Counted from the first letter of the stretch, positions 12,750 through 36,137 are shown. The stretch is 64,000 nt of DNA from an uncultured Gammaproteobacteria bacterium (GCA_964452565.1 CAYVLY010000002.1:119166-183165), one strand, 5' to 3'. Notes: generated from the letters alone by a model not told the origin. Made by a program: numbers and translations.

Positions 12750-13232
12750 ATGAAGCGCATCCTGCCTCTGGCCATCATCGCCATCATCATCCTGACCGCG
12801 TTGGCTGGCCCGGTCGTTTCCGGCTTCCTGTTCATGGGAGCCATCCTGTGCTTCGCGGGCGCCGGGTGCATCATGATTGCCGGAGCAGAAGCACTGGCCG
12901 GGCGTCTGGCCGCCTACGCGGGAGGCTGTCTTTTCGCGGGGATTATCCTGCGGGCCGTCGCTGGGGCGAGCGCTCAGTTGAGTCCGAGCATCATGGTCGG
13001 GCTCCTGGCGCTCCTGGGCTTGGTCGTGCTTGCAGGAGCCTTGGTCCTCCTGTCCCGGATCATCGTGCAACGGCCGCCGGCGGGTCCTCGACCTCGGCCC
13101 ATGGCCAGACCACGGGCTCGCCTGGTCGAGCACATCGAATCCGATCCTACCGCGTGGGTGGGCACTCGACAGTCTGCTCGCACCGACGACGAGCTGGGCA
13201 TCCTCGGTGAGGGTGATGTTCGCCAGAGATGA
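12750..13232 (+). CDS. Small membrane protein with four TM helices
   Basis: RBS AAGGAG. Glycine/alanine-rich TM helices. Possible membrane partner of the downstream ATPase. Confidence 0.55.
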   Translation: MKRILPLAIIAIIILTALAGPVVSGFLFMGAILCFAGAGCIMIAGAEALAGRLAAYAGGCLFAGIILRAVAGASAQLSPSIMVGLLALLGLVVLAGALVLLSRIIVQRPPAGPRPRPMARPRARLVEHIESDPTAWVGTRQSARTDDELGILGEGDVRQR

Positions 13233-14700
13233 GCGACTACCTGTGGGGCAAGGGCAGCAGGACGTGCTCCCGCTGGCCGCCTCCACATTGGTCGAGGCCC
13301 ATTCGGCTCAAGTGGGTGGGACGGGATCTGGTAAGACCGGTTTCCTCATCGGCAGGGTCATGACCCTCCTCTCGTGCCTTCCCGGACGAGTCCACGTCTG
13401 CGTCCTGGATGGCAAAGGAGAGGCAGCCAGAGATCTACTCGGCACGTTCGCCCCAGCAATTGCCCACGAGAGCTGGGGGCTCAAGGCAGACCAGATTGGT
13501 GTCTGCTCGCCCTGGAAAGATGGCTGCCACGTCGGCCTGAACCTGCTCGCCCGACAGCCGGGGATGCCGGTCGATGTGCAAGCAAGCCAGGCCAGCAGAG
13601 CGATTCAGCGACTCGTAGGTGACAACTTCGGGCAGCGAATGGCCCCGATGATCATGATGGTTCTACGAGCCGTAATCGAGCTCAAGGGCTCGCTGCACGA
13701 CGTACTTCGTATCCTGGAAGACGACGAAATCGGCATCGCAGTAGGCCGACGAGTTCGAGACCCCGATGTCCGGCGCTATCTCATCGAAGTGCTTCCACGC
13801 GAGCCAGCGGCGACCAAGGCAGCTCTGCGGGCGCGTCTTGTGGGCCTCTTGGGTCTGCGGGCGATGCGCGCCATGCTCTGCTCCAGAGAGAGCATCACCG
13901 GAGTGGACTTCATCAATTCCCGGTTGAGCATCATCGACCTCGGAGGGGCGCCACCAGGCCATGCAGATCTGTCCATGTGGCTTGGTACTTGGATTTTCAA
14001 CATCATCACCTCTGCGATCTTGAACCGGCCAGACGAGCCCGGCAGACCACAGCTCTGTCTGTTCGTGGATGAGTTCCATCATCTGATCCACTCGCACGCT
14101 GACCTTGAGCAGCTCCTGACGATGGCCCGTTGGAAGGACACCAGCGTGCATCTGACGACTCAATCTCTGGCCCAGGTGCAGAACCAGCGGCTCATTCAAA
14201 CGGCCCTTGCTAATATTGGAATGTTCGTAGCGTTTCGCCCGCGGCCTGAAGACCTGCACCATTTTGGGCACCTCATTTCAGGCAGGGGTCACGTAGTGGA
14301 CCCCGAGCTTCCAGATCGGTTGCTGGAGCCTTCCAGGCAGACCCAGCTCTGGACCACCCGCCTTCGAGCACTGCCGCCTCGCTACGCTTGGCTTGTGGAT
14401 CTCTCACAAGGAGGGGAGAGCCACATCATCCGCAGCCTGGAGCTGCCATACCAGCGAGCCCGCCAGATCTCCGAACGCCTGTCAGCAGAACAGCGCCACG
14501 CCTTCTGGCGCGGCAAGTTCGGCAAGACCGTCGAGGAGCTCGAATCTGACGCTGCAACAGCTCTCAAGGGCATTCAGAAGCCAGGAGCAGGCCAACAGGG
14601 CGACATGCTCGATGGCCTCGGCAGCGGTGGATCCGGTCGGAGGGCCGGGCGTGGGAAGGGCAAGAAGAGCCCGACTTTCATGATGGAGCTACCAGAATGA
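13213..14700 (+). CDS. P-loop NTPase of the FtsK/TraD/VirD4-like coupling-protein type
   Basis: Walker A VGGTGSGKTGF and Walker B LCLFVDEFHH. Sits among Replic_Relax genes. Confidence 0.65.
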   Translation: MMFARDERLPVGQGQQDVLPLAASTLVEAHSAQVGGTGSGKTGFLIGRVMTLLSCLPGRVHVCVLDGKGEAARDLLGTFAPAIAHESWGLKADQIGVCSPWKDGCHVGLNLLARQPGMPVDVQASQASRAIQRLVGDNFGQRMAPMIMMVLRAVIELKGSLHDVLRILEDDEIGIAVGRRVRDPDVRRYLIEVLPREPAATKAALRARLVGLLGLRAMRAMLCSRESITGVDFINSRLSIIDLGGAPPGHADLSMWLGTWIFNIITSAILNRPDEPGRPQLCLFVDEFHHLIHSHADLEQLLTMARWKDTSVHLTTQSLAQVQNQRLIQTALANIGMFVAFRPRPEDLHHFGHLISGRGHVVDPELPDRLLEPSRQTQLWTTRLRALPPRYAWLVDLSQGGESHIIRSLELPYQRARQISERLSAEQRHAFWRGKFGKTVEELESDAATALKGIQKPGAGQQGDMLDGLGSGGSGRRAGRGKGKKSPTFMMELPE

Positions 14701-15044
14701 CCGCCGCACTCCTCAACGCTCTGGGGCAGGTCCAAGGGTCCTTGCTCATGCGCCTTGGACTGGCGCTGCTTGTGCTGCCTCTGCTGCCTGTGGCGGTAGT
14801 TGTCGATGGGCTGCGATCGCTCATCCGCGCGCAGGCGGAATCTCGGGTGCTCTCTGCTGGAACAGCTCTCTGCCCTGCTGGGCACCGGCTGTCGCTGCAG
14901 GGCGCATATGAGTGCGAGCAATGCCGGCTTCCCTTTGAGGGGCATGGCTTTGGAGAGTGCCCACACTGTCGGCACGTGGCCCACAGCCTCCGATGTCCAT
15001 GCGGCCGAGTGGTCGTCAATCCTCTGTGGAGCCCAGAGCCGTGA
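14697..15044 (+). CDS. Small protein with an N-terminal TM helix and a C-terminal Cys-rich zinc finger
   Basis: ATGA start/stop overlap with the ATPase gene. CEQC...CPHC...CPCG cysteine cluster. Confidence 0.45.
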   Translation: MTAALLNALGQVQGSLLMRLGLALLVLPLLPVAVVVDGLRSLIRAQAESRVLSAGTALCPAGHRLSLQGAYECEQCRLPFEGHGFGECPHCRHVAHSLRCPCGRVVVNPLWSPEP

Positions 15045-15100
15045 GCAAGCTGAAGTGCCCAGCTCGGACTCGGCCCCGCCCTCCTGGCGGAACCAGGGTG

Positions 15101-16006
15101 ATGCCCAGGGACAAGCTCATTCTGTTGCTCGTGGCCAGATGCGCCCCGGTGACCACCACCCAGGTCCGAACCTACCTGGAGTGCAGCACAGATGTTGCCC
15201 AGCGCCGCTGCCGGGTGCTTCGTGATCATGGGCTGCTCCAAGTGACGCTCGATCCCCGAGGGCTCCATCGGCCCAACCTGCTGACTCTCGGTCTGCCAGC
15301 CATGCCGGTGCTCGACCAGACCTTCGGCTTGAGCCCCGAGCAGTGCCGCCGCCCCAAGGCCATGCCGAGGAACCTGGATCATCACCTTGGAGTCGTGGAC
15401 CTCTACATCCAGTTGAAGGCCGCCACCACAAGATCGAAACGCATCGACCTCGCCGATTCGATGCTGGACTGGGAGCTGCGTCAAGGCCCTGGGGCCCGCC
15501 AGAGGCGGGTACAGGTGCCCGATCTGGTAGCTGTTCTTCAGAGCGACAGTGGGCGCATGGGGCTGGCCATCGAGGTGGACATGGCTACGCAGTCACCCGA
15601 CAGCGTGGTCAGGAACAAGGCCCTGCCATACGCCCAGGCCAGGCTGTCTGGCTCGACCCTCAAGGGCTGCCGCGACTGGGCAGTCCTGATGGTGAGTGCC
15701 AGCGTGCGCCGGCGCAACCGCCTGATGATCCGCCTGGGCCGGGAAGCGCTGCCGCTGGGATTGTTCTACTTCGCCGTCTCGGAGAACATCTCTGCCAGGA
15801 GCTTCCTCGGACGAACTACATGGCGGGCTCGCCACCTGGGCTCCGACGGAGTCGTGCGCTGGCCAGAGACCGACCCCTTTGCACCTATCAGGACGACCCG
15901 TCAGGTCCGTGCTGACGGGTTTCGTGCGCCGTCCAAGCCTTTGCAGGCCGCCAATGGCGCGCCCGCAAACTCCGATCTTGGTCCTCCCGGAGGACCACGG
16001 ACATGA
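15101..16006 (+). CDS. Replication-relaxation family protein (second paralog)
   Basis: LDHHLGVVDLYIQL and IEVDMAT motifs parallel the 3999..4862 product. N-terminal wHTH. Confidence 0.6.
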   Translation: MPRDKLILLLVARCAPVTTTQVRTYLECSTDVAQRRCRVLRDHGLLQVTLDPRGLHRPNLLTLGLPAMPVLDQTFGLSPEQCRRPKAMPRNLDHHLGVVDLYIQLKAATTRSKRIDLADSMLDWELRQGPGARQRRVQVPDLVAVLQSDSGRMGLAIEVDMATQSPDSVVRNKALPYAQARLSGSTLKGCRDWAVLMVSASVRRRNRLMIRLGREALPLGLFYFAVSENISARSFLGRTTWRARHLGSDGVVRWPETDPFAPIRTTRQVRADGFRAPSKPLQAANGAPANSDLGPPGGPRT

Positions 16007-17110: not shown

Positions 17111-17998
17111 TCAACCGGGCTGCCTGCTGCTTCGCACTTGATCGCCGCTGTACCACCAGCCTGCTTCGGGCCGCACCCGGCCGGTGTGGGGCCGTCCCAT
17201 TCCGGTTGAACCGCGCCAGATTCTGTCAGCCCAGGCAGCCACCCGCTGCTCCATGGGCTCTCCCTCCAGCTTTCCTGGCCCTGGCTCGTTGGCCAGGGTT
17301 CGCGCAGGCTGTTTCCCCTCACCGCGCCTGGAGCTCTCGCTCTGGGTGGCACGAGGCAACAGCTCCGTGACTGCCTACGGCGCTGCCAGGTTGCGCCTGC
17401 CCAGGCCTGCGGGCTCGCTGGGTTCGCCTTCTTGGTCGTGGCTGTGGGACCACCATGGGTCTTCTCCTCCTATCCAGGCTTCCCGCCTGGCAGGTACTGG
17501 GGGCTCTGTCTCCGTTGCGCTCTGCTCATCAGGGGCGCTTGGGGCTGCAGGAGAGGTGGGAGAGCTCTGGACGGCGAGGCAGCCAGGCCGTCATGGTCTT
17601 TCGTGCGTGAAGCCCCGTGGGTTGCTCTGCACCGGTCGGGTCGCGCGTCCTGTTCTCCACACCGTGGGAGGGATCGACAGGTGAGCAGTTCCCGCTACCT
17701 GCGCCGCATGTGGCGGGCGTCCCTTGGCCCGGCCTCCTTGCTGGCCTTGGATGAGTGCGTGGAAGCGCTTCCTGCTCCAGGTCCACAAGCAAAGACCTGG
17801 TTGGTGGAGACTGTGAGCCCCATCGGAGAGGTGGCGGGCGTCAAGGTCTGGCGCTGGGGTGAGGTGCTGGAGGCCATCGAGTCGAAGCGCAGGGGCGTTG
17901 GCGACAAGGAGCCTGCACACTGCGAGCCTGCGTATGCAGACCGCCCTCCGCGCGGGCATCATGTTGAAGAAGAATTGAGCGGTACTGGCACCGACTGG

Positions 17999-18406
17999 AT
18001 GACTGTGCGCCAAGCCGCAGAGCACTTCCAAGTCTCCGAACGACTGCTCCGCAAGCTGCTCTCCCAAGGGCGGCTTGACGAAGCCGTCGCTCGGGTAGGC
18101 CGAGCAGTGCGGCTCCATCGGGGCCGTCTTGTGACGGCACTCACTGGACAGGAGGATGCCCATGGCCTGGCTCCAAAAGAGCAAGAGGCTCAACCCGGAC
18201 ACGGGGAAGAAGGAAATCTACTACCGAATCTGTTGGAGAGTGAACGGCAAGAAGCGTACCCGCGGCATCGGGTTCTGCGGGGTGGTGGAGGCCAAGGAGC
18301 TTCTCAAAATCTTCGAGGGCAAGCAGGCCGTCGGCGAGGAGGTGGCTCCGCCGCCGAGTTCCGAGCCTACCTCCGCGGAGCCAGCACTGGTTCCGAAGCT
18401 GGCTGA
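17999..18406 (+). CDS. xis: Excisionase/MerR-like HTH protein (Xis). 3' extent uncertain.
   Basis: MTVRQAAEHFQVSERLLRKLLSQGRLDEAVARVGRAVRLHRGRL is a typical excisionase-family HTH directly upstream of int. The ORF continues about 250 nt into int in another frame. Confidence 0.4.
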   Translation: MTVRQAAEHFQVSERLLRKLLSQGRLDEAVARVGRAVRLHRGRLVTALTGQEDAHGLAPKEQEAQPGHGEEGNLLPNLLESERQEAYPRHRVLRGGGGQGASQNLRGQAGRRRGGGSAAEFRAYLRGASTGSEAG

Positions 18407-19367
18407 CTACCTGGATGACGTGTTCCTGCCTGTTGTGCAGCGCGACAAGGCGCCCAAGACCTACGCCGGAGCCTGCCGGGCAGCCAATGCGCTCAAGCCC
18501 ATCCTTGGCCAGTTGCAGCTCGACCAGATCAACTTCGCCGCCGCCGATGCCTATGTGACCGAGCGGAAGAAGCTTGGCCGGAGGTCGAGGACCATCATCC
18601 TGGAGCTGCGCTACCTGCGCCAAGCCCTGCAGCACGCCCACGCCTGCGAAGTCATCCGCCAGGTGCCGGAGCTGCCCAGGATTGCCGACCGTGACCGTAA
18701 GCCCCACAAGTTCCTCACCGAAGAGGAGTCTGAGCGCCTGTTGGATGCCCTACGCCCCCTGGACGAGCAGCCCCACCGGGTCACCCGTGGGAGGCCACCC
18801 ATCACCAGGGACCAGCTCACCTACCTGGTGGTGCTGATGGCTCTCAACGCCGGTCTACGCAAGAGCGAGATCCTGACCCGCGGCTGGGAGGATATCCACT
18901 GGCAGCAGGGGCCTCTGGGCACCATCATCATCAGCCACAAGCCCGAGGTGGGTTTCGTGGTGAAGAAGGGGCGCGAACGGGCCATCCCGCTCACACCGAA
19001 TCTGCGCCACGCCCTGGAAGACGCCCACGAGGCTGCCGGCAGGCCGTCATCGGGCTGGATCTTCCCCTCGCCGAGGATTCCTGGCCAGCCGCGAAAGAAC
19101 TTCGCCCAAGCCCTGGCTCGGGCCTGCAGGCGAGCAGGGCTGCCGCGCATCCATCCCCACGGCCTGCGCCACACCTGGGCCACCAGGCTTGCCATGCAGG
19201 GGGTAGACCGTCGGACGCTCATGGAGCTGGGCGGCTGGAAGGAGGGCCGGATGCTTGATGAGATCTACGCCCACACCACCGACGCTCACAAGGCCGAGGT
19301 CATGGCGCGCATGGGCATCGGCCGCCATGAGAAGAGCCCCGAGGGTGAGCCGGATGATGAGGAGTAG
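18156..19367 (+). CDS. int: Phage-type tyrosine integrase
   Basis: N-terminal arm-binding-type segment (AWLQKSKRLNPDTGKKEIYYRICWRVNGKKRTRG). C-terminal catalytic HGLRHTWATRL...LGGWKEGRMLDEIYAH (R..HxxR..Y). Confidence 0.9.
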   Translation: MPMAWLQKSKRLNPDTGKKEIYYRICWRVNGKKRTRGIGFCGVVEAKELLKIFEGKQAVGEEVAPPPSSEPTSAEPALVPKLADYLDDVFLPVVQRDKAPKTYAGACRAANALKPILGQLQLDQINFAAADAYVTERKKLGRRSRTIILELRYLRQALQHAHACEVIRQVPELPRIADRDRKPHKFLTEEESERLLDALRPLDEQPHRVTRGRPPITRDQLTYLVVLMALNAGLRKSEILTRGWEDIHWQQGPLGTIIISHKPEVGFVVKKGRERAIPLTPNLRHALEDAHEAAGRPSSGWIFPSPRIPGQPRKNFAQALARACRRAGLPRIHPHGLRHTWATRLAMQGVDRRTLMELGGWKEGRMLDEIYAHTTDAHKAEVMARMGIGRHEKSPEGEPDDEE

Positions 19368-19735
19368 GTGCCACCCAGCTGCCACCCACGGCCAGCCTTC
19401 AAGGGCTCTCTGGGAGCAGATTTCTCTGGGTGCCACCCAGAACTGCCACCCAGCAGCCTCAATCGCTCCTTCAACGAAAAGACCCACTCTGCGGTTTGCA
19501 AAGTGGGTCGTTCTTTTTCGTCGAGTCGGGGTGGGCGGATTCGAACCGCCGACTTCCTGCTCCCAAATGATCGAATCGGGGAGGTATATCCTGTGTTTTC
19601 AAGGGGTTACAGTGCACCAGGATGCACGGTTTTGCACGGAAATGCACCTGGTTGCCACCCAGTGCCACCCAGCAGATGGGAGGATGATGGTGCGATATGG
19701 AGTCGGTGGTTCTGGGTGGCAGGGTGCCACCCAGT
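19368..19735. promoter_or_regulatory. attP-like region: eight copies of TGCCACCCAG (one inverted) in two clusters flanking a tRNA 3'-end-like core
   Basis: Copies start near 19369, 19380, 19431, 19444, 19653, 19663 and 19726, with the inverted copy at 19712. Layout is that of arm-type integrase-binding sites on both sides of a core. Confidence 0.5.
19525..19553 (-). other. tRNA 3'-end fragment (T-arm GGCGG-TTCGAAT-CCGCC plus acceptor 3' strand), candidate attachment core. Not a complete tRNA.
   Basis: Reverse complement reads GGCGGTTCGAATCCGCCCACCCCGAC. No matching 5' half. Differs from the tRNA-Val 3' end at 36061. Confidence 0.5.
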
Positions 19736-21484: not shown

Positions 21485-21760
21485 AAGTCATTATCCTTCC
21501 GGGACCGATGACAAAGGACGTGTAGAGCTTCCCCAGCACTCACACTAATTAAACCGATCCCTTGATCCTCCGAGGAGGCTCACCCTTCTTCTTTATTTCA
21601 CAGGGTGTATTTTACAACCGAAATATTCTCGTGCTCTTGAGATAACCAGAGGGGGAAAGAGAGCCATTTACATGTGGTGTATTAGGCGGCGATGCCTTTA
21701 CTTATTCCACGGTCTCGGCTACGGTGCGAGGTAGAGAATCCTCCCATAGGAGCACTTTCT

Positions 21761-23758
21761 ATGCCGAATCAGATTCGAACTCTGCCAGACGGCAAGATAT
21801 GCGATTTCATTGATGGAACTATCCGTAACGACACGCCGGAGGAATACGTTAGGCAGAATATTGAGAAACGCCTCGTCTTGGAGCTTGGGTATTCACTTGG
21901 CCAGATAGCTGTCGAATTTCCTATTCGCATCGGTAGCCGACGGGCACGGATTGACCTTGCCGTATTCCCGGAAGATGCCGCTCACACACAAGACAACGTG
22001 CATGTCATTGTTGAGTGCAAGCGAGAGTCAGTAGAGCCCACCGATCACAAGAACGGCGTTGAGCAACTCAAGTCCTACATGTCGGCTTGCCCCAACGCTG
22101 CTTGGGGGATGTGGACAAATGGCCGATACAAAGATGTGATTCGAAAGACCGTCTCTGACGGCAGCATCGAGTGGGAATCCCCGAATGATATCCCCGCCAA
22201 GGATGGGGATACAGACCGGTTGGACATGCCGTCCCGTGAAGATCTCACTAACGCAACGGACGACAACCTTCTCTTCTCTTTCAAGACATGTCACAATCAC
22301 ATCTATGTTACCGACGGGCTCCAGAAGCAACCCGCCTTCTTTGAGCTTTTAAAGGTGATCTTCTGTAAGATCCACGACGAGCGAAACGTACCTCATGCCC
22401 TTGAGTTCTACGCAACGGCCGCCGAAAAGGCGAGCAATGATGGTCGGCTGACAGTGGCGCGACGCATCGGCAGAATCTTCGATCGAGTGAAGGCGCGATA
22501 CCCAGCCATCTTTGACGGTGGAGACACAATTGCACTGGAACCACGGTCACTTGCCTATGTAGTTGGCGAGCTACACAAGTACAGCTTCCTGACTACAAAC
22601 ATCGACGTGAAAGGCAAGGCGTATGAAGAGTTAGTCGGTGCGAACTTGCGTGGAGACCGCGGAGAATTCTTCACGCCGCGCAATGTGCAGCGCATGGTTA
22701 TCGAAATGCTTGATGTACAGGTCGATGAGCGTGTTCTTGATCCCGCGTGTGGTACAGGTGGTTTCCTTGTCATTGCAATGAAATTGATAATCGATCAACT
22801 TCGAGAAAAGGCAGGATTCTATGCAGATGAGATGGTCAATCCGGCTGTCTTGCACGCCGTCGACCTGCGCGTGCGAGAGCTTGCAAGGTCTTGTTTCTTT
22901 GGTTTCGACATAAACCCCGACCTCGTCAAGGCGACCAAGATGAACATGGTCATGAACAACGATGGGTCGGGTAACATCTTCAGAGAAAACAGTTTATTGC
23001 ATCCACACCAGTGGTCTGACGGTTTCAAACAGGAACTCGCAGACGCGCTCGGGAAAAAGCCTCTTTCTCTGCGTGGGCCAGGCCACCTTGGTTATTTTGA
23101 CGTCATCGCTACGAATCCCCCTTTTGGCGCCAGACTGCCCATCAAGGACCGCGAAACATTGAGTCAATACGATCTTGGCTATGTGTGGACCGAGACGAAA
23201 ACCGGTTGGCAGAAAACACGCAAACTCCAGTCGTCCATGCCGCCTGAAGTTCTCTTTATCGAACGATGCTGGCAGTTTCTCAAACCTGGCGGCCGAATGG
23301 GCATCGTTTTGCCAGATTCCATTCTGGGCGCGCCTGGACAGCGTTTTGTTCGAGAGTGGATACTTCGCCACTGTCGGCTGATTGCCTCGGTCGATCTTCA
23401 TCCAGATACTTTTCAGCCACGCAACAGCACACACACGTCAGTTCTTGTGCTACAGCGAAAGACTGAAGATGAAATCCGTCGAGAGGAGAAACAAGGGCAG
23501 CTCAACGACTACTCGATCTTCATGGCTCAAGCGAAGGCGATTGGTCACGATAGACGAGGAAAGACTATTTATCGTCGAAATGAAGATGGGGAGATTGTGC
23601 TGGTGCCGCCCCCAGGTTCGGTTTCTACGTTGGAACGTACAGCGGACGGTTCTCCAGTCAGCCGTCCTCTACCAAGGCAGAAAATCAAGGACGATGATTG
23701 TCCTTTCATCTCTCAAGAGTTTCGTACCTGGAAGAAGACGGAGGTACTTGGCTGGTGA
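21761..23758 (+). CDS. N6-adenine DNA methyltransferase (HsdM/Type IIG-like) fused to an N-terminal HsdR-N/PD-(D/E)xK nuclease-like domain
   Basis: RBS AGGAG 9 nt upstream of ATG 21761. N-terminal YVRQNIEKRLV...IDLAVF...VIVECKR (restriction-endonuclease-fold core). FFTPRNVQRMV..LDPACGTGGFL (motif I). NPPFG (motif IV). Confidence 0.8.
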   Translation: MPNQIRTLPDGKICDFIDGTIRNDTPEEYVRQNIEKRLVLELGYSLGQIAVEFPIRIGSRRARIDLAVFPEDAAHTQDNVHVIVECKRESVEPTDHKNGVEQLKSYMSACPNAAWGMWTNGRYKDVIRKTVSDGSIEWESPNDIPAKDGDTDRLDMPSREDLTNATDDNLLFSFKTCHNHIYVTDGLQKQPAFFELLKVIFCKIHDERNVPHALEFYATAAEKASNDGRLTVARRIGRIFDRVKARYPAIFDGGDTIALEPRSLAYVVGELHKYSFLTTNIDVKGKAYEELVGANLRGDRGEFFTPRNVQRMVIEMLDVQVDERVLDPACGTGGFLVIAMKLIIDQLREKAGFYADEMVNPAVLHAVDLRVRELARSCFFGFDINPDLVKATKMNMVMNNDGSGNIFRENSLLHPHQWSDGFKQELADALGKKPLSLRGPGHLGYFDVIATNPPFGARLPIKDRETLSQYDLGYVWTETKTGWQKTRKLQSSMPPEVLFIERCWQFLKPGGRMGIVLPDSILGAPGQRFVREWILRHCRLIASVDLHPDTFQPRNSTHTSVLVLQRKTEDEIRREEKQGQLNDYSIFMAQAKAIGHDRRGKTIYRRNEDGEIVLVPPPGSVSTLERTADGSPVSRPLPRQKIKDDDCPFISQEFRTWKKTEVLGW

Positions 23759-25479
23759 GACCTCAATTTGCCCCAAACACGTCGGAGATTCCAGCAAGGC
23801 CCCGTAGGGACTCTATTGCCACAACGGTTTCACTCAAAGAAGTCGTCACCCAAGGAACACGGTTTGACGCTTCAGCGTACGACATAGAATCACGCAATAC
23901 GCTCACAACGATTGAGTCGTGTGGGCTATGTGTCCTGCCGTTGTTCGGCTCGAAAGGCCTCTGCAAGGAAGCACACAATGCCTTCCGCTTCAGGCGAGTT
24001 TTTGCTTCAGAACAAGGGCTACCGTTCCTGACCAGCGCTGACATCATCAAGATGCGACTGGACTATCGTCGTCATTTGAGTCGATCGCAGACTCCACGAG
24101 TGCGAGAGCTTCTTCTTCAGAAGTGGGATGTCTTAATTTCTTGTTCGGGAACCATTGGAAACGTCGCGCTGGCGGGTCCGGCGGTCGAAGGGTTTGCAGC
24201 GTCACAAGATATCATTCGGCTTCGTGCGACAAATAGTGACATTGCAGGTTACGTTGCGGCTTTCCTGCGTTCTCGCTATGGGAGAGGACTGATTGCGAAT
24301 GCGACCTATGGATCGGTAATAACGCACATTGAACCAGATCACCTATCCAGGATTCCCATCCCTGTACCACGTCCACACCTCATGAACGTCGTTGGCACGC
24401 AGATGAGAGAAGCCGTGCTACTGCGTGAACGAGCAAATCGGCTTCTCGATGACGCGGAAGCCGCCCTGTACGATGTTCTCGGCTTCGAGAGGCTTGATAC
24501 CCGGCACATGCGATCTACCACCATTCGCGCTCGGGAGCTCAATGGCCGCTTCGATGCCAGATACCACGAGCCAGTTGCTATTGCTGCTCTGCGGGATTTG
24601 GAGACATGCCGTTATCCGATATCGACAATTGGCGATGGCGCTGTATGTACTGAGATCCGGCAGGTCACGAGGTTTCGTAAGCGCGTATATGTTGAACGAG
24701 GTGGAATTCCTCTCCTAACAACGCGGCAGCTATTCCAGTACGACCCAGTCAAGATAAGTCACCTTGCAAAAGGCGCGCACGAAAAAGACCTCAAAGAAAT
24801 CGCGCTTGCGCCGAACATGGTAACTGTGAACTGCTCTGGTCGACTCGGCCGAGTGCAGGCAGGCACGCTCGGGCGTGTGCAGATTATCCCCAGATATATG
24901 TCGGAGTGGACTACTTCTCAACATGCACTGCGGCTTGTCGCTGCGCCTGACCTCAACGCAGGCTATCTCTATGCCTGGCTTGCCTCGGCCCACGGCCTTC
25001 GTGTCATTACGCGCCATGCATATGGCTCCGTAGTCGTTCACATTAACCGTCACATGATGGCCGAGGTTCCAATACCTCTCCCAACAAGGGAGAAGCGCAA
25101 CATGATTGGCGATCTTGTACTTCTGGCAAACCGACTGCGCGATGAAGCCTGGCGAAGGGAGCAAACTGCTATCCGGCAAGTTGAGGCTCTCATAGCCCTC
25201 CCCCCAGCTGAACATGATCCGATGGGATTTCGGATGGCTCAACTGGAGGCGGAGGCGAGTGGCGTTTATGCGCAGATAGAAAGTTCGTCTGACGAGCAAG
25301 AGGCATCCCGTCTACGCAGGAGACTTCGGCATCTACAACAAGAGCAGTCGGACCTGATGCAACAGGTCTTCTCCAGCCAGTTCTCACTTCCCCCAGAAGT
25401 TGGAGAGGATGTTATCGCCCTTGCTGACCGAGTACTGCGGGAGTATCGTGCTACTACCACCACGGCTTCAACCAAGTGA
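23698..25479 (+). CDS. hsdS: Type I restriction-modification specificity subunit (HsdS) with two target-recognition domains
   Basis: Duplicated TRD architecture with conserved SGTIGN/NCSGRLGRV-type segments and a central coiled-coil spacer. Alternative GTG start at 23755 overlaps the methyltransferase stop (GTGA). Confidence 0.75.
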   Translation: MSFHLSRVSYLEEDGGTWLVRPQFAPNTSEIPARPRRDSIATTVSLKEVVTQGTRFDASAYDIESRNTLTTIESCGLCVLPLFGSKGLCKEAHNAFRFRRVFASEQGLPFLTSADIIKMRLDYRRHLSRSQTPRVRELLLQKWDVLISCSGTIGNVALAGPAVEGFAASQDIIRLRATNSDIAGYVAAFLRSRYGRGLIANATYGSVITHIEPDHLSRIPIPVPRPHLMNVVGTQMREAVLLRERANRLLDDAEAALYDVLGFERLDTRHMRSTTIRARELNGRFDARYHEPVAIAALRDLETCRYPISTIGDGAVCTEIRQVTRFRKRVYVERGGIPLLTTRQLFQYDPVKISHLAKGAHEKDLKEIALAPNMVTVNCSGRLGRVQAGTLGRVQIIPRYMSEWTTSQHALRLVAAPDLNAGYLYAWLASAHGLRVITRHAYGSVVVHINRHMMAEVPIPLPTREKRNMIGDLVLLANRLRDEAWRREQTAIRQVEALIALPPAEHDPMGFRMAQLEAEASGVYAQIESSSDEQEASRLRRRLRHLQQEQSDLMQQVFSSQFSLPPEVGEDVIALADRVLREYRATTTTASTK

Positions 25480-26209
25480 TGTACCTCTTGAGCGCCGACA
25501 CTCACCCCGCCCACTTCGAGGAGAGTATGGGTATAGAGGGTATCGACCATGTATACGCTGGGATTTTGGTTTCACCTGCGCGATATGCCTTCTCCACGAA
25601 GCAGACTTCGTTGCTATTGGAATAGAGGGTACGGGGCTAACATCTATTGAGCATATTGAGGCGAGGAGTCACGACCAAGACCTCGTCAATGAATATTCCA
25701 ATCTTCTATATGCCTGTCGTTTCTGCAATACTGCACGGTCAAACCGTGGAAGATCTGCTCTGGATGGAGCGCAACTTCTGGACCCTACAGAAGCGGCCTG
25801 GGAGAACCACTTTTACATAGCTGCAGACGAACTTCGCCCGAAGCATGGAGATCACTCGGCGCAATACACGGCTGACTGCTACGATATTAAAGAACCGCGT
25901 AAAACAACTCTGCGCCGGCTCCGAAGGGAGCACGTCCAGTACTCACAGCGAGTGCTTGAAGCCGCGCCAGGACGTATTGCAGAGCTTAATAACGCCTTGG
26001 CAGACGATTCGATTTCGCCCTCATCTTCGCTCTACCTTCTCCTGAAGAACACGCTGGACGATTTGAAGGTCGAGTATGAGCGCATCATGACAGAGATTCT
26101 TCGCTACTGCGCAATACCGCTTGATGCGGACGACATCTGCCGTTGCGAGGGCGAGGGCAATCGAGCATTGCCGCCATTTATCGCGAGTCAAGTTTGGCAG
26201 ATAGGTTGA
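25400..26209 (+). CDS. HNH endonuclease-domain protein
   Basis: CAICLLHEADF...IEHIEARSH...NLLYACRFCNTAR, i.e. a CxxC...H...N...CxxC HNH motif. Start overlaps hsdS by about 80 nt, and no in-frame start lies downstream of the hsdS stop. Confidence 0.55.
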   Translation: MERMLSPLLTEYCGSIVLLPPRLQPSDVPLERRHSPRPLRGEYGYRGYRPCIRWDFGFTCAICLLHEADFVAIGIEGTGLTSIEHIEARSHDQDLVNEYSNLLYACRFCNTARSNRGRSALDGAQLLDPTEAAWENHFYIAADELRPKHGDHSAQYTADCYDIKEPRKTTLRRLRREHVQYSQRVLEAAPGRIAELNNALADDSISPSSSLYLLLKNTLDDLKVEYERIMTEILRYCAIPLDADDICRCEGEGNRALPPFIASQVWQIG

Positions 26210-26269
26210 GCTTCATGCACGTCGGTGGCGTGGGTGCCCCCATAAGAGAAAACACCCAACAGAAAGTAG

Positions 26270-27406
26270 CTACTGCGGCATTTTGGGCAAAGGCGCCGGA
26301 AAGTGAGGCCATGATATCCATCTGTTGAAGATGGTTTGTCTGAAAAACTCACATATGTTGGTCTGGGTACGAGAATCAATGCGTTCCCAGGCAGAAGGCG
26401 CAATCGCGAAGTTCTCCGTGTATCTTAATACAAGTTCCCAAATTCCCTCCAAGAAGGCAACATCATCATTGCGGCGAAACACTGAATTGACCAGTTCCCC
26501 GGCTGTACGCCTATGGTCACGAGAGTACGAGCAGGACACCAGGGCTCCGCTGTCGGTGAAAGAAATATCAACGGTAGCCCAGGGAAGATTCGTCTGGTCT
26601 CCTTTCTTTGCGTGAATCCTATTTCCAACAGCGTCGAAATGTGGAGTGAAGAACCCGTTCACAGCAAATCCGGGACGTGAGATGTGCCTCCACCGCACAG
26701 CAAGTGCGCGATCTACATGATGATTCAATATGCAACGGTCAAAAGCCTCCTTCACTCGGATAATCCCCTGCATCCCCAGTTGCACACCATAGGACTGGAT
26801 CATTGACAACGTCTGTAGTTCCAAGGACGTGCTTGTGTCTTTTACAATCTTCTTGGTAATGGAAATTGCGTGTTCGAGTGCCCGTTGCTTCTCCCACGCC
26901 TCCCGCAATATTGCCCGATATGCCAAGAGGACGAGTTGGTGCTCGGTCGGATGCTGGAGTTCTTCGGTGTCGATACTTCTGAAGAGTGACGCATCGTGTT
27001 CGGCACACAGGGCGTGAAAAATGCTTGCGTGGCGCGAAATGCCGACAGGCTTGCCACGTATTTCTAGGTGGTTGTCGAGATCTTGCGTCATATCCATCAC
27101 AACAACATGCCCGGTGCCCTCTGAAAGAGGCGTCAAGGTGCGCTTTCGCTGCAGCGAATGACTGCGGATGGGTGTTCTCGGACAGGCCACAGGACCAGGA
27201 GCGAGGCAACGAGGAATCGGTTTGCTTTTTAGCGTCTTAAAGAGAACTGCTTTCAATCCGCGCATCACAGAATCGGGACGCAGCAACTGATCGGAGTTCG
27301 GCATTTGCCGTATTTCGTTGATGCTGAATCCCAAGTCTCCTTGGGCGCTCCTCCAAAGCATCTCGTGAAGGAGGGCAGGGTCGAGTTCCCGACGATCAGT
27401 CATCAC
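26270..27406 (-). CDS. Hypothetical protein (378 aa) in a restriction-modification-adjacent defence-like context
   Basis: Clean long ORF. No motif recognised. Convergent with the HNH gene. Confidence 0.5.
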   Translation of the reverse strand: MMTDRRELDPALLHEMLWRSAQGDLGFSINEIRQMPNSDQLLRPDSVMRGLKAVLFKTLKSKPIPRCLAPGPVACPRTPIRSHSLQRKRTLTPLSEGTGHVVVMDMTQDLDNHLEIRGKPVGISRHASIFHALCAEHDASLFRSIDTEELQHPTEHQLVLLAYRAILREAWEKQRALEHAISITKKIVKDTSTSLELQTLSMIQSYGVQLGMQGIIRVKEAFDRCILNHHVDRALAVRWRHISRPGFAVNGFFTPHFDAVGNRIHAKKGDQTNLPWATVDISFTDSGALVSCSYSRDHRRTAGELVNSVFRRNDDVAFLEGIWELVLRYTENFAIAPSAWERIDSRTQTNICEFFRQTIFNRWISWPHFPAPLPKMPQ

Positions 27407-27623
27407 CTGTACCTTCTTGACGATTCACACATGAACAGCACCAAGCACTGAACGGAAGAGAACCTCGAGAAATAGACTCTATTGCCGAAGGGCCTCACCA
27501 CCTGTTTGGGCCGTGCTTGCGGATCGGGTGAAGAGATATCCTTCGGACATTTTTTCTGCAGCTGTCGAGTTTCATACCCCCCTGCACAGAAGCAGCTCGC
27601 CCTCAACGCGGGCTGCTACCCCC

Positions 27624-28325
27624 CTACTCATCATCGGAAGAGCCGAAACCGGGCATCCTGCTCTGCAACTTCTGCTGGAGTTCTTCGCACTTGAGCTTCA
27701 TGCCAATGACGGCCTGGTGGAGCTTCTCGGCGTCGTCCTCATCCAGTTCTTCGACCTTCTCCAGTTCGCCGAAAGCTTCGGAATCGTCGGCCAGCATCTT
27801 GGAGAAACGGTTAATGGTCTTCACGAATGCCGGGAGTGCTGGACGGCCCCTCTTGCCGGCGGCCTTTGCCCTGATGGCCTTCGCCTTCTTTTCGACCGCC
27901 TGGACCTGCCAGCCCTTCTTCTCGGCCTGCTCCAGAAGCCGCCTCTGGTCCTTCTCCTTGAGCCCGATCACGGCGTAGAAGTGCCCGACCTGCAGGTGCT
28001 TCCATTTCGTGACACCGATCTTGTCGCACATCTCGTAGACAGAGACTGCGCGGAAGAGGTTCGCAGCACTCAAGTCGCAGTCTCTGCGCTCGGCCAGTTT
28101 CCTGAACGACGCGTCCTTCTTGCCCCGATCTCGCCAAGCCGCGAGTTCACCGCCGTAGAAATTATCGACGATGATCTTGCCGACATTGAGCGCCATCTCG
28201 AACAGGGATGCTCTCGTCACTTCGTTGATGTCAGCAACGACTTGATCGATGACCTCATCATCGACAGGAGCGGGCAGAACGTCATCCGGGCTGGTCAGCG
28301 CTGTCTCTTCTTTCTCGTCGGCCAT
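27624..28325 (-). CDS. Hypothetical protein (about 233 aa) with a Lys/Glu-rich coiled-coil C-terminus
   Basis: RBS GAGG 8 nt upstream of the internal Met (MADEKEET). Palindrome copy 2 lies about 90 bp upstream. Confidence 0.5.
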   Translation of the reverse strand: MADEKEETALTSPDDVLPAPVDDEVIDQVVADINEVTRASLFEMALNVGKIIVDNFYGGELAAWRDRGKKDASFRKLAERRDCDLSAANLFRAVSVYEMCDKIGVTKWKHLQVGHFYAVIGLKEKDQRRLLEQAEKKGWQVQAVEKKAKAIRAKAAGKRGRPALPAFVKTINRFSKMLADDSEAFGELEKVEELDEDDAEKLHQAVIGMKLKCEELQQKLQSRMPGFGSSDDE

Positions 28326-28413
28326 TTCGTACCTCTGCACAAGGGAACGCTCTTTATTAAGCACGAATCACGAGTGAGTGCAAGTGAATTTCTAACACCA
28401 GACTCCTCTGGTT

Positions 28414-28435
28414 GGTGTTTCAGGCCTGAAACACC
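28414..28435. repeat. Perfect 22-bp palindrome GGTGTTTCAGGCCTGAAACACC, copy 2
   Basis: Exact match. Intergenic between two minus-strand genes. Confidence 0.9.
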
Positions 28436-29566: not shown

Positions 29567-30532
29567 CTACTTTTCATTGATAGATGCTCCATCATCGCAG
29601 AGCAGATCAACGACTTTTCGTAGGCCAGCCTGACCAGGGTGCAGGTAGCGGATCGTGGTCTGGATGGAGGCATGTCCAAGAAGGCGCCTGACCTCTTCAA
29701 TGCTCGCCCCGCGGTTCAAGAGCTCGGTGGCGAAGCCATGCCGCAGCATGTGAGGAGTAACGGCGAAGTTCAGGCCTGCAGCCTTCCCAAGGTCGCTGAC
29801 GTGGAGCTCGACCGTTCGCGGTGAAAGTCTACGGCGAAGCCTAGACACGAAGACCGCATTCGTAGCCAGCTTCAGCGATATTCTCTGCTCAAGCCAGGCA
29901 GCAAGAGCTGCTCGTGCTGTGCGGTTCAAGAGCACCGGCTGGGAGTTGCCGCCCTTGCGCCGGACCTCCAACAGGAGGCCCTCGTCCAGGTCCACCTGGT
30001 CGATGTCGAGGGAGAGAAGCTCATCGAGGCGCAGCCCTGTGTGGAACAGCAGCGTGACCATGCACGAGTCCCTGTGGTGTTTCAGGCCTGAAACACCCAT
30101 CGGGATGGCAGCCAGGAGCCTCTCCATATGCTCCGGCGTCACGACTGGAGGCTCTATCCGAGGAACCTTGACACGAGGGATGTCAGCCTCTGGGCTCAAC
30201 TCTATCACCTCTGTTTTTTCAAGATGTCTGAAAAAACCGCGAAGGACAGTCAGCTTGCGGTTCCGAGTGCTTGGAGAGATCGGGCCCCTGGGGCCTGGCC
30301 GGTTGAGATAGGCCACCAGGTGCTCACGGGTGACTTGCTCTGCCCTCACGACCTCCATCTTCGCGAGGGTTCGCCGAAAAAGGCATAGCTCCTGACGATA
30401 CGAGCGCAGCGTCTTTGGCGTGTACTTGCGCTCCTGTTCCGCGTGCTCCAGGAAGCCGTTGACGGTCGTCGCGAGGTCCATTCTTGAGCGTCGAGGGGTG
30501 AGGGTTTTTGGGGTGGGTGAACTGCGCCACAT
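29567..30532 (-). CDS. XerC/XerD-like tyrosine site-specific recombinase
   Basis: Box I-like TGLRLDELLSL. C-terminal HMLRHGFATELL...LLGHASIQTTIRYLH. Contains palindrome copy 3 in-frame (encoding GVSGLKHH). Confidence 0.85.
   Translation of the reverse strand: MWRSSPTPKTLTPRRSRMDLATTVNGFLEHAEQERKYTPKTLRSYRQELCLFRRTLAKMEVVRAEQVTREHLVAYLNRPGPRGPISPSTRNRKLTVLRGFFRHLEKTEVIELSPEADIPRVKVPRIEPPVVTPEHMERLLAAIPMGVSGLKHHRDSCMVTLLFHTGLRLDELLSLDIDQVDLDEGLLLEVRRKGGNSQPVLLNRTARAALAAWLEQRISLKLATNAVFVSRLRRRLSPRTVELHVSDLGKAAGLNFAVTPHMLRHGFATELLNRGASIEEVRRLLGHASIQTTIRYLHPGQAGLRKVVDLLCDDGASINEK
30076..30097. repeat. Perfect 22-bp palindrome GGTGTTTCAGGCCTGAAACACC, copy 3, inside the recombinase coding sequence
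   Basis: Exact match, embedded in codons of the 29567..30532 ORF. Confidence 0.9.
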
Positions 30533-30680: not shown

Positions 30681-31613
30681 ATGTCAACCACCGATCGCCT
30701 TTTTATTCTTCATGTTAGCGACACCCACTACGCACGGCCCGGGGAAACACTTTGTTCACTGTTGCGTGCGCAGACGCGTACAGAAGAAACTCCAGCCGCC
30801 GCTTTTCAAGTGGCGGCCCGGTATTTTATCAGTCAAATGAAAGGGGCAGCGCATCACTTCGCAAAATACAGACGAGACTATCTCGATAGAGTCTCACAGG
30901 TGGTCCAAATACTGCAAGGAGAGTGCATAACCATCCTTCACTCTGGAGACGTGTCGCAGGCGGGACAGATAAGCAGCATAGTGGAGGAATTGTCGGAACT
31001 CCAAAAGGCTGCAGGCGATGGCATAGAAATGATAGCCGTGCCAGGAAATCATGATCTCTGGCCAATGGACCTTCCTGTCCTGAGGCCGACACATACGGCG
31101 CTGCAATACTCGAGGATACGAAATCTTGGCTTCTTTCCTTCGCAGTATCCGAAGCTCTTCACCCTGTCAACTCCGGTGAACAGAATTCATCTTTGGGCGT
31201 TAGACTCTCCAATTGCAGATAGCGTTCCGAATATGTTCGCTGTTGGGAGTGTGGAGGACAACAGAATATCGGATGTCGGCGTGGTGGATGATTCAGGTCC
31301 CTATATCGGGACAGTGAGCCACCATCCGTTGCGACCCGTGGATCCCAAATTGGCAAGACGCTTGGCGCAGCACCTGCGCTTTCCGGTTCTCAACATGCTC
31401 GGGGCGACAGCCCTGTGCGATGTTCTTGTGAAACAGGGTGTCATCGTTCATTTTTGTGGGCACGAGCACAGAAGACCTGCTCGACCAGATGATATGCCTA
31501 TCCATGATAACAAAATACTGCAGCTCGCGGCGGGGACGCCAACGATTGGATCCTCTACCAGAACCTCAAGCAGCACAATTCCACAGTTTTCGCTTTACAG
31601 CGTTGTCTTCTGA
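30681..31613 (+). CDS. Calcineurin-like metallophosphoesterase
   Basis: Motifs in order: VSDTHY (DxH), HSGDVSQAG (GD), VPGNHDLW (GNHD), FCGHEHRRP (GHxH). Confidence 0.75.
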   Translation: MSTTDRLFILHVSDTHYARPGETLCSLLRAQTRTEETPAAAFQVAARYFISQMKGAAHHFAKYRRDYLDRVSQVVQILQGECITILHSGDVSQAGQISSIVEELSELQKAAGDGIEMIAVPGNHDLWPMDLPVLRPTHTALQYSRIRNLGFFPSQYPKLFTLSTPVNRIHLWALDSPIADSVPNMFAVGSVEDNRISDVGVVDDSGPYIGTVSHHPLRPVDPKLARRLAQHLRFPVLNMLGATALCDVLVKQGVIVHFCGHEHRRPARPDDMPIHDNKILQLAAGTPTIGSSTRTSSSTIPQFSLYSVVF

Positions 31614-31735: not shown

Positions 31736-33145
31736 TCAGGCGGCGCGCACCTCCTCTCTCGGCTGGATCTCCCCTGGTCGTCGCCGCAGGCGTCGGGGCT
31801 CCGCGGGTGGCTCGCGCCTGGTGAGGAGCAAGTCGAGGAATGCGCACAGGGAATCCAGGGAGCGGAGGCAGTAGTGGGAGCGCTGTCTCTTGCGGAACTC
31901 CCTGTTCTCTCGCTCTGGGTGGTTGGAGGTCTTGTCGGCGTTGTCGAAATCCAGGTAGTGGGTGAGCCGAGCGAAGAGGCCGTCATTGGACAGATCCGCG
32001 AGCACCAGCTTCATACCAGGGATTCCCTGGAATGCGGGATTGGCGAGGAGGGCCTGTCTGCGCTCCTCTGCCAACTCGTGGGAGTCCGTGCTCGAGCCGA
32101 AGAGCTCGTACATCGCCTCGATGAAGCGGCGGAGCACGCCTAAGGCCGGGCAGAGGCAGAAGGCCTCGTCCAGCATCTTCTGCTCGGCCTCGGTGATGAG
32201 CGGGCGCCCCTTGTCGTCCAGCCCCCCACGCTTGAAGATCAGGAACCGGCAGCGCATCACCTTGCGCCGGTTCTCCCTCTTCCGTTTGTCCAGCCGAGGT
32301 CGTCCCCTCTTCCTTGGGCGGCCACGTTTGCGCTTCTTGGGCTTTGGAAGTTCGTTGTAGGCGGCCCAGAAGGCCTTGGCCAGCTTCCTGTTCGCTCCCA
32401 TGAGGAAGTGGAAGACGCAGCGTTGGTGCTCGGCCTCGGGCCACACCTCTGCGATGATCTCTGGGTAGAGAGAGGAGCCGTCCGTCACCACGATCTGGGG
32501 CATGATGCCCGCCTCTCGCAGCTCCAGGAAAAACTCGCGCACGTCTTGGCCGCAGGGAGAGCCGTCCCCCAGCCGAGAGGAGATCTCCACGCCGTTGAGC
32601 GGATCGGTGGCTCTGATCACGTAGTGGTCGCCTTCGTAGACCTCGTCTACAGCGAGCTGACCGGAGAAGACCGTCACCATCCTCTCCATATGGCTCTGGA
32701 AATCCACCTCGCCCCCAGCTCTGCGGTACCAGCGGAGGACCGTCGTGTCTGCCAGCTTGGGCAGATGGAGCAGGGAGCGGCCCACGGCAGCCGCTCCCTC
32801 AAAGGACAACTTGTGGTCCACGACCAGCGACAGCACGGCGAGGCGAGTGGCGGTCGTATATCGGCTCCGTTCCTCGAATCCTGGAGGCTCAAGACGGAAC
32901 CAGCACTGGCCGCGTGGGCAGTGCTCACAGATGTAGCAGCCGACCTGCACGTACTCCATCGTAGGCCCATCGATGTCGGCCCTCTGGCGTTCCAGCAGGC
33001 GGATTTCGTTCCGCGGAGCTGGGCGACCACATCGAGGGCAGAGTGCGGCCTCTGGGGCGAAGGGGACAGGGTTGAGCTTCTTGGTGGGGAGGGGTATGGT
33101 CTTCATCGGCGCAGGTCCGGTTTGTGGAGCTTGGTAACTACGCAA
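31736..33145 (-). CDS. DDE-type insertion-sequence transposase with an N-terminal zinc ribbon. Family not assigned.
   Basis: CPRCG...CYICEHC zinc ribbon. Acidic residues in a DDE-like arrangement (AVDEVYEGD, IVVTDGSS). Basic KRKRGRPRKRGRPR patch. C-terminal NHPERENREFRKRQR resembles the transposase N..E..N..K/R signature. Confidence 0.6.
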   Translation of the reverse strand: MRSYQAPQTGPAPMKTIPLPTKKLNPVPFAPEAALCPRCGRPAPRNEIRLLERQRADIDGPTMEYVQVGCYICEHCPRGQCWFRLEPPGFEERSRYTTATRLAVLSLVVDHKLSFEGAAAVGRSLLHLPKLADTTVLRWYRRAGGEVDFQSHMERMVTVFSGQLAVDEVYEGDHYVIRATDPLNGVEISSRLGDGSPCGQDVREFFLELREAGIMPQIVVTDGSSLYPEIIAEVWPEAEHQRCVFHFLMGANRKLAKAFWAAYNELPKPKKRKRGRPRKRGRPRLDKRKRENRRKVMRCRFLIFKRGGLDDKGRPLITEAEQKMLDEAFCLCPALGVLRRFIEAMYELFGSSTDSHELAEERRQALLANPAFQGIPGMKLVLADLSNDGLFARLTHYLDFDNADKTSNHPERENREFRKRQRSHYCLRSLDSLCAFLDLLLTRREPPAEPRRLRRRPGEIQPREEVRAA

Positions 33146-35913: not shown

Positions 35914-35937
35914 GAGTGTTCCAGGCCTGAAACACCT
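35914..35937. repeat. Near-perfect copy 4 of the palindrome (GTGTTCCAGGCCTGAAACACC, one mismatch) close to the island/host junction
   Basis: One substitution relative to the 22-mer. About 125 bp from the tRNA-Val 3' end. Confidence 0.8.
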
Positions 35938-36060: not shown

Positions 36061-36137
36061 TGGTGGGCGTGAGAGGACTCGAACCTCTGACCTTCACAAT
36101 GTCAATGTGACACTCTAACCAGCTGAGCTACACGCCC
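36061..36137 (-). tRNA. tRNA-Val (anticodon GAC)
   Basis: Manual fold of the reverse complement: acceptor GGGCGTG/CACGCCC, D-arm GCTCAGCTGGTTAGAGT, anticodon loop TTGACAT, T-arm AGAGGTTCGAGTCCTCT, discriminator A, encoded CCA. Confidence 0.9.

Follow-up and report, generated by a model that had tools for sequence, protein, structure and literature searches.

Restriction-modification (RM) enzymes of type IIB such as BcgI and BsaXI carry an N-terminal PD-(D/E)xK nuclease and a gamma-type N6-adenine methylase in a single polypeptide, which is accompanied by a separate HsdS-like subunit with two recognition domains and by no helicase subunit. BcgI has an A2B design (PMC3592470), BsaXI is represented in the PDB as an (RM)2S complex (8W0P), and cleavage by BsaXI depends on its residues E73, D90, E105 and K107, which are conserved among type IIB enzymes (PMC11997821). 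In the methylation-associated defense system (MADS), the methylase MAD2 modifies a bipartite site on both strands, and the detection model for the system treats MAD6-8 as mandatory and MAD1, 2 and 5 as restriction-modification-like accessories (preprint 10.1101/2023.03.30.534895). Small nucleases are attached to larger partners in other systems: the PtuB nuclease of Septu is held by a helical C-terminal extension of PtuA, encoded upstream, and this extension is required for function (PMC12819146), PrrC is a latent nuclease of the EcoprrI type IC locus that is associated with the enzyme and unleashed when phage inhibit restriction (PMC12707154), and HsdM-HsdS-PIN operons with neither an antitoxin nor an R gene were reported by Matelska et al. 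2017 (PMC5499597). Here we examine a locus at positions 21,761 to 28,325 of a 64,000-nt stretch of DNA (the window) from an uncultured Gammaproteobacteria bacterium (GCA_964452565.1 CAYVLY010000002.1:119166-183165), in which a nuclease-methylase gene (M) and a specificity gene (S) are followed by a gene for an HNH nuclease. We put at about even the chance that together they encode a type IIB-like (RM)2S enzyme, methylating and probably cutting at a bipartite site, with a PtuB-like HNH nuclease tethered to its S subunit. We know of no type IIB enzyme with an HNH nuclease docked on S.

The elements on which this reading depends are the following.

21761..23758, plus strand: M, the RM subunit, 665 aa, a PD-(D/E)xK nuclease domain followed by a gamma-type N6-adenine methyltransferase
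21836..22168, plus strand: PD-(D/E)xK (HSDR_N_2) domain of M, residues 26-136 (Pfam E value 2.3e-23)
22601..23485, plus strand: N6-adenine methyltransferase domain of M, residues 281-575 (Pfam N6_Mtase, E value 7.4e-30)
23755..25197, plus strand: core of S, residues 1-481, with two target-recognition domains, ending in the CR2 helix (...AIRQVEALIA)
25198..25479, plus strand: C-terminal extension of S, residues 482-574 and the stop codon, a helical HNH partner ("adaptor") domain fused in frame
25448..26209, plus strand: PtuB-like HNH nuclease, 253 aa, starting with GTG after GGGAG, in the +1 frame and overlapping S by 32 nt

The open reading frame (ORF) listing and family scans agree with a preliminary description of the locus that had been made from its sequence, in which M was recognized as a methylase with a nuclease fold at its N-terminus. 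Pfam HSDR_N_2 (PF13588) is indeed followed in M by N6_Mtase (PF02384), and the methylase motifs DPACGTGGF and NPPF can be read in its translation; a PD-(D/E)xK-type domain is thus present as proposed, although the family matched is PF13588 and not PF04313, the one that had been named. We place the start of M at ATG 21761 rather than at 21692, with AGGAG 8 nt upstream and homologues aligning from residues 1-5. By sequence the best PDB match of M is RM.BsaXI (E 6.4e-36), far ahead of type I HsdM proteins, and M scores 31 bits against the type I HsdM model TIGR00497, whose cutoff is 242.75. Its best PADLOC model is MTase_II PDLC03318 (E 2e-155). An AlphaFold2 model of M has moderate overall confidence (mean predicted local distance difference test score, pLDDT, 67.9) and shows, at pLDDT 68-90, an alpha-beta-beta-beta-alpha-beta topology for the nuclease domain. 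When this model was used as a Foldseek query the top three matches were the RM chains of BsaXI, aligned over 635-662 columns (E 7e-23 to 2e-21), with the M subunit of EcoKI next (E 3.5e-14), so that BsaXI is the best PDB match both by sequence and by fold.

The putative catalytic residues of M, namely E52, D65, E85 and K87, show no variation among 80 homologues with identities of 55-71%, in which the N-terminal domain is conserved to the same degree as the methylase. A profile of the N-terminal 170 residues had a single PDB match, to BsaXI residues 47-96 (E 0.039), and placed D65 opposite the catalytic D90 of BsaXI; judging from their spacing, E85 and K87 would be equivalent to BsaXI E105 and K107. 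We consider it somewhat more likely than not that M cuts DNA. The BsaXI matches by sequence and fold, the conserved residues and the identical A2B design of BcgI together indicate that the nuclease fold on M, which had been thought unusual, represents the textbook type IIB arrangement of an RM polypeptide with S, here in a very large family. M nevertheless differs from BsaXI in being only 21% identical to it and in having 665 aa rather than 916, with the C-terminal "knob" and "paddle" of BsaXI missing, and unlike the characterized type IIB enzymes the M+S family is likened to this type by sequence and fold, its cleavage being putative.

For the HNH gene, homologues and the gene call both support a start at GTG 25448 with its own Shine-Dalgarno sequence (GGGAG), which reduces the overlap with S, previously estimated at about 80 nt, to 32 nt. 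The Pfam HNH match falls just under threshold (20.8 bits compared with 21.4, E 4e-4), and the PADLOC PtuB model matches with an E value of 1.6e-14. The zinc-finger and HNH residues, CxxC...EH...CxxCN, are invariant in 21 homologues. In an AlphaFold2 model (pLDDT 87.6) long helices occupy residues 166-200 and 210-236, the four best fold matches in the PDB are PtuB chains of retron I-A/Ec78 and Septu, and at E values of 0.003 or below the model matches PtuB nucleases only. The protein therefore has the PtuB fold with a helical C-terminal domain known from Septu PtuAB and retron Ec78/Eco7. At E≤1e-30, a search of 1.84 billion proteins gave 213 cluster representatives of its family, whose members are uniformly about 250 aa long. 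A homing endonuclease, which the preliminary description had considered as a case against its own model, is not what we found: the HNH protein has no relative in 2.9 million viral contigs or 72,556 plasmids, which also argues against a phage or plasmid homing enzyme, and it has a conserved upstream partner.

This partner became apparent from the genes preceding HNH homologues. Among 68 HNH loci with enough upstream sequence, 65 had a co-directional ORF abutting or overlapping the HNH start, and 57 of these 65 ORFs cluster together although the shortest has 100 aa and the longest 668. Common to them is a helical domain of about 100 aa at the C-terminus that ends at the HNH start (consensus I..LY.EL..L...DP.L...L.RLR.LQ..EA....RFE..L..P.G.G..L..A..LL), which a hidden Markov model (HMM) finds in 61 of the 65. 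Relative to the upstream ORF, the HNH gene is in the +1 frame in 51 of the 65 loci; the overlap is typically 47 nt, and 4 nt in eleven loci. The window HNH, with its +1 frame and 32-nt overlap, has the same geometry. The N-terminal parts of the upstream proteins vary, with Pkinase in 5, Response_reg in 5 and RecA_C in 3 as well as RHH, sigma70_r4 and zf-HC2, and many of the proteins consist of the bare partner domain. Because of this variety, the partner domain behaves as a transferable coupling module, as far as can be judged from protein sequences, and with the HNH it looks like a modular and apparently undescribed two-gene system. Such fusions were seen in soil-metagenome loci (for example L004 8857-10768, L107 1914-4608, L103, L137 and L164, and others). 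The overlap geometry fits a type II toxin-antitoxin pair, and one partner carries an RHH domain, yet many are fused to large signaling domains. As in Septu, the partner domain occupies the C-terminus of the upstream protein, an analogous position, but there is no PtuA ATPase: the gene upstream of the HNH is S in the window, no AAA_15 or AAA_21 gene is present in the locus, and elsewhere the upstream protein is a kinase, a receiver-domain protein, a RecA_C protein or the bare domain.

Several identities for the partner domain were considered and set aside. PADLOC families gave scattered chance matches only; Pfam EAD9 had a sub-threshold match to the window copy alone (1 of 36 members), which we attribute to chance; and homology with the helical domain of the HNH protein itself, which would make it a homotypic adaptor, was unsupported (hhalign E 0.036). 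We also noted a short HNH branch (219 aa, with part of the helical domain missing) that lies 10 nt 3' of an 883-aa MmeI-like N6 methylase without a recognized nuclease domain (L013 5340-8660, L100 5343-8660, L117, L148 and L158), a second association of the HNH family with a DNA methylase. The similarity of the C-terminus of this methylase to the partner domain (hhalign E 0.035, HMM E 0.028) is suggestive by position only, and we make no claim for it.

The S gene (23755-25479, 574 aa) starts at GTG 23755, in agreement with an independent gene call, and this codon overlaps the TGA of M as GTGA, as expected from the translational coupling that had been proposed. Methylase_S matches S twice, which bears out the earlier assignment as an HsdS with two target-recognition domains, and type I S models also match it over its full length. 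Where ordinary S homologues end, directly after the CR2 helix and level with residue 481, the window S runs on for a further 93 residues. The HMM of the partner domain, which was built from the last 120 aa of the 61 ORFs upstream of HNH homologues, had one match among 1,607 proteins, residues 480-570 of the window S (E 4.1e-11); there was no match in 80 other S proteins or in 1,500 other ORFs of M+S loci. The S tail scored 47.7 bits, whereas none of 2,000 shuffles exceeded 12.0, and a six-frame translation of the window contained no other match. Since the HMM is specific to this tail and plain S homologues end at CR2, we conclude from the sequence comparisons that in the window S an HsdS core has been fused to the partner domain that goes with the HNH family. 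The coupling of M+S to an HNH nuclease, as it had been suggested for the locus, is not a trait of the M+S family but appears to exist here, through the last 93 residues of S.

To place M and S among their relatives we used the loci of the 80 best among 570 relatives of M from a scan of one genome per species. The M proteins of these loci are 55-69% identical to the window M and come from cyanobacteria, Acidobacteriota, Proteobacteria, Bacillota, one archaeal bin and others. Among 5.8 billion proteins M has more than 7,400 matches at E≤1e-20, of which the best 120 all match over the full length with 65-71% identity and share the M architecture. S directly follows M in 78 of the 80 loci, and the remaining two are cut by contig ends. 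Clustering of the ORFs revealed no conserved neighbor besides M and S, the next largest clusters being shadow ORFs inside M, a PIN gene (25 loci) and a 260-aa protein (10 loci). Other recurrent neighbors were, on inspection, a histidine kinase, an ABC ATPase and a serine recombinase; no helicase or nuclease partner recurs beside M+S across the 80 loci, and about one third of the loci have no co-directional third gene within 120 nt. These comparisons indicate that M+S is a common self-contained two-gene unit, a widespread relative of the MADS methylation module, and not new. The family is poorly annotated; sources label its members "N-6 DNA methylase" or "type I M protein".

The HNH, which the preliminary description had envisaged in the place of HsdR, is absent from all 80 of the closest M+S loci, and M and S are absent in turn from 85 HNH contexts (five that were looked up and 80 metagenome loci). 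Nor is a five-gene neighborhood conserved, since HNH and the two following genes, orf378 and orf246, together with orf357 and orf143, had no tblastn match in the 80 M+S loci. On these surveys, before the S tail is considered, the HNH thus lacks the conserved linkage whose absence had been named beforehand as counting against the proposed system. The absence of HsdR, by contrast, was correctly noted: ResIII, helicase and HsdR domains were not found in 30 of the larger ORFs of the window, and neither HsdR nor MADS genes were found just outside the M+S locus. The window accordingly differs from type I systems in having no ResIII/Helicase_C domain, and no third gene is conserved in the 80 loci.

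Among named families, M comes closest to the MAD2 methylase and S to the MAD5 specificity subunit, both matched over their full length. M scores 638.2 bits with the NCBIfam model MADS2, under its 720-bit equivalog cutoff, and S scores 320.6 bits with MADS5, for which the cutoff is 400, so that the two are homologues and not equivalogs of the MADS proteins; they also differ in that M and S are adjacent here. NCBIfam MADS models had no match in the seven nearest unassigned genes, a search that left out two ORFs about 10 kb upstream, at 9985-11769 and 13030-14700, which have no Pfam match, and Pfam revealed no kinase or ATPase domain in 30 window ORFs. Because neither the window nor the 80 related loci contain MAD3, 4, 6, 7 or 8, we do not regard the locus as a MADS system.

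The window is not the only place where S of this family ends in an extra domain beside an overlapping gene. In all 25 of the PIN-linked loci among the 80, S has a tail of 60-69 aa with the motif PIWEL..VPDEEW.KLP.DLA..FD.Y (a 26th tail of this type lies at a contig end), whereas 47 of 50 S ORFs that have a different third gene, or none, extend at most 13 residues beyond the CR2 helix. In 21 of the 25 loci the VapC-like PIN gene and the S stop overlap, by 4 or 1 nt; cyanobacterial examples include L023 (11977-14033), L024-L026, L031-L039, L041, L042, L044-L048 and L055-L057. The tail, specific to PIN-linked S, may be an antitoxin-like domain fused to S. It corresponds to no named antitoxin family, with no Pfam or NCBIfam match and no plasmid match, and it is unrelated in sequence to the HNH partner domain. 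The order of genes, M, S and a small nuclease-like gene, is that of the HsdM-HsdS-PIN operons (PMC5499597), from which the window differs in that the PIN effector is VapC-like and the S tails are not related in sequence; as far as we could find, a fusion has not been described earlier as the explanation for the missing antitoxin of those operons. An acidobacterial S (L066, 12128-13828) bears yet another tail, of 125 aa, and the downstream DUF7689 gene (E 2.8e-34) overlaps it by 81 nt. From these sequences it would follow that an S tail with an overlapping effector arose at least three times in the M+S family, which makes a meaningless accident a less likely account of the window fusion. Ten Bacillota loci (L063 13505-14287 and nine others) encode a 260-aa protein that starts 1-11 nt after the stop of an S without a tail; it has no Pfam or NCBIfam match, and its R-x4-H motif (LRCCLAHGD) is maybe HEPN-like.

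Downstream of the HNH gene the locus continues with two genes that had been taken as part of it.

26270..27406, minus strand: orf378, convergent, no family match; not part of the system
27624..28364, minus strand: orf246, weak Pfam HTH_ParB match (E 0.0017, under cutoff); not part of the system

Neither gene is linked to M+S. For orf378 only 3 homologues were found in 5.8 billion proteins, in a different context; one of them adjoins a Schlafen gene within a transposon-rich mobile-element region in which M, S and HNH are all missing. The gene orf246 extends to 28364, the 28325 given before being a shorter call. A perfect 22-nt palindrome, GGTGTTTCAGGCCTGAAACACC, occurs in three copies (28413-28435, 30075-30097 and 35914-35936) with a degenerate fourth at 17594-17616. 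The copy at 28413-28435 is about 50 nt upstream of the orf246 start, that at 30075-30097 is within an integrase gene (29567-30532), and that at 35914-35936 is 125 nt from tRNA-Val near the island end; the palindrome may be an operator or a recombination site.

A block of separate composition had been recognized in the locus, and we see the same, with a GC content of 51-54% at 21-27 kb compared with 58-66% at 17-21 kb. From M to orf378 the GC content is 51-56% and that of third codon positions (GC3) 0.49-0.59, and GC is uniform across M, the S core, the S tail, HNH and orf378; GC3 of flanking genes is 0.84 for an integrase at 18156-19367 and 0.75 for orf246. Two sequencing runs, made separately, yielded contigs that match the window without a difference over 8.5 kb and 16.7 kb. 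The block lies in an island of 51-68% GC (window 1-36000) that adjoins a flank of about 44% GC (41000-64000). The island contains a Replic_Relax gene (14957-16006), an HTH_17 excisionase-like ORF, two tyrosine recombinases, a Mutator-type transposase (31736-33145) and tRNA-Val (36061-36137), and the flank encodes UvrA, RNase J, a T4SS-pilin-domain protein and DUF4012 and DUF11 proteins. An independently assembled 27.8-kb contig starts at window position 19525 and, from its length, is expected to span the boundary between island and flank. Adjoining the integrase is a calcineurin-like metallophosphoesterase (30681-31613), whose weak resemblance to DS9, an anti-phage phosphoesterase of NCBIfam (E 1.2e-6), and to PADLOC PDC-S10 lies far under cutoff. 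Promoter and terminator scans of the locus gave results no better than those from shuffled sequence.

Two modules thus appear to have been joined, an M+S enzyme and a partner-domain and HNH cassette. By analogy with BcgI and BsaXI, an (RM)2S complex would methylate host sites and cut unmethylated DNA nearby, with the two recognition domains of S reading a bipartite site; no HsdR would be needed, since in such a scheme the RM subunit itself both methylates and cuts. We infer that the S tail docks the HNH on the recognition complex to give an (RM)2S-HNH assembly. Within it the HNH may be a latent accessory toxin or nuclease governed by the state of the restriction complex, a guard or back-up comparable to PrrC with EcoprrI, and we lean somewhat toward this role over a direct contribution to cutting at the recognition site, because the partner domain also couples the HNH to signaling domains that are unable to target DNA and because the effectors of the parallel S tails are toxin-like. 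Like PrrC, the HNH is encoded within a restriction-modification operon and may be attached to the enzyme; PrrC differs in being an RNase of the ABC-ATPase type and in not being fused to any subunit. Several observations weigh against the proposed enzyme and its tethered nuclease. The best PADLOC model for M is labeled a type II methyltransferase and not an RM fusion, the full-length model of M is only moderately confident (pLDDT 67.9), and the nuclease domain aligns weakly with BsaXI (E 0.039). In MADS, MAD2 is insufficient for defense without MAD3, 4 and 6-8 (preprint 10.1101/2023.03.30.534895). No family in Pfam, NCBIfam or PADLOC matches the partner domain, which also has no detectable similarity to PtuA's C-terminal extension. 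Moreover, the combination of S, partner domain and HNH is known from one lineage only (0 of 80 M+S loci, 0 of 85 HNH loci), for which reason the fusion could be a recent accident, and the PIN case may represent a single ancient event.

The same rarity is the starting point for a different account, in which an independent toxin-antitoxin-like or selfish cassette landed 3' of hsdS, the S stop was lost and the frames became fused; the HNH might then still bind its partner, but its activity would have nothing to do with restriction or methylation. Elsewhere the cassette sits in unrelated, partly housekeeping contexts, often with the partner as a free protein of about 100 aa and once with an RHH domain of antitoxin type, and a small gene overlapping a larger nuclease gene downstream is the usual geometry of type II toxin-antitoxin pairs. 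In the window, only 8 residues (LPPAEHDP) separate the last conserved residue of S from two in-frame Met codons, and the mobile island around the locus carries two integrases and a transposase. Those internal Met codons, however, have no Shine-Dalgarno sequence, and there is no compositional break at the S junction. The partner domain is, besides, repeatedly a true C-terminal fusion, to kinases, receivers and RecA_C, which suggests that fusion is a normal state for it, and S tails with an overlapping gene arose independently at least two more times, one of them persisting across many cyanobacterial genera. We regard such an incidental insertion as rather unlikely. We give still less credence to the model originally put forward, that M+S only recognize and methylate, with no working nuclease in the N-terminal domain of M, and that the HNH replaces HsdR. 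It would fit an HNH that is operonic with S, apparently tethered to it and intact in its catalytic residues, the position of the short HNH branch 10 nt after an MmeI-like methylase in 5 loci, and the failure of MAD2 alone to give defense in MADS (preprint 10.1101/2023.03.30.534895). It does not fit the invariance of the PD-(D/E)xK residues of M in 80 homologues, and with about one third of M+S loci having no close third gene, and none having this HNH, the family shows no dependence on an external nuclease of this kind; the partner domain also joins the HNH to kinases and receivers that cannot target DNA sequences, and the parallel tails are paired with PIN and DUF7689 and not with restriction-type nucleases. 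Least probable, and very unlikely, is the absence of any restriction, M+S being an orphan epigenetic methyltransferase or a decayed MADS remnant among unrelated cargo. The closest NCBIfam models are MADS2 and MADS5 while the other MADS genes are missing, and the best PADLOC model is that of a methyltransferase, as this would predict, but M and S fall under the MADS equivalog cutoffs, their genes are intact and translationally coupled, the two-gene form in 78 of 80 related loci from many phyla is unlike decay, and strict conservation of a nuclease motif would be hard to explain in a pure methylase.

Beyond this locus, we tentatively suggest, as a generalization less likely than the reading of the locus itself, that the C-terminus of S may be a general docking point for accessory toxins on MAD2/MAD5-type (type IIB-like) complexes, for HNH here, for PIN in many cyanobacteria and for DUF7689 in one acidobacterial genome. 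The partner or antitoxin domain of the toxin would be fused to S, and the toxin would be controlled by the integrity or the DNA-bound state of the complex. As part of the same suggestion, the pair of partner domain and PtuB-like HNH might be a relative of Septu, not described before, that has no ATPase and whose input domain can be swapped (kinase, receiver, RecA_C, sigma/anti-sigma or HsdS).

Most of what seemed odd about the locus is ordinary, since a nuclease-methylase with S is the type IIB design. What the fusion adds is evidence of the Rosetta-stone type, as read from protein sequences, that a PtuB-like HNH nuclease is physically coupled to the recognition subunit of a restriction-modification enzyme, and the analysis has uncovered a conserved partner domain that links this HNH family to many input domains. 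Taken together, the HNH, PIN and DUF7689 tails of S suggest a simple route by which restriction systems could recruit second-line effectors, and an antitoxin-like domain fused to S may explain why HsdM-HsdS-PIN operons seemingly have no antitoxin. If this is true, annotation pipelines should treat long tails of S subunits as effector-docking modules.

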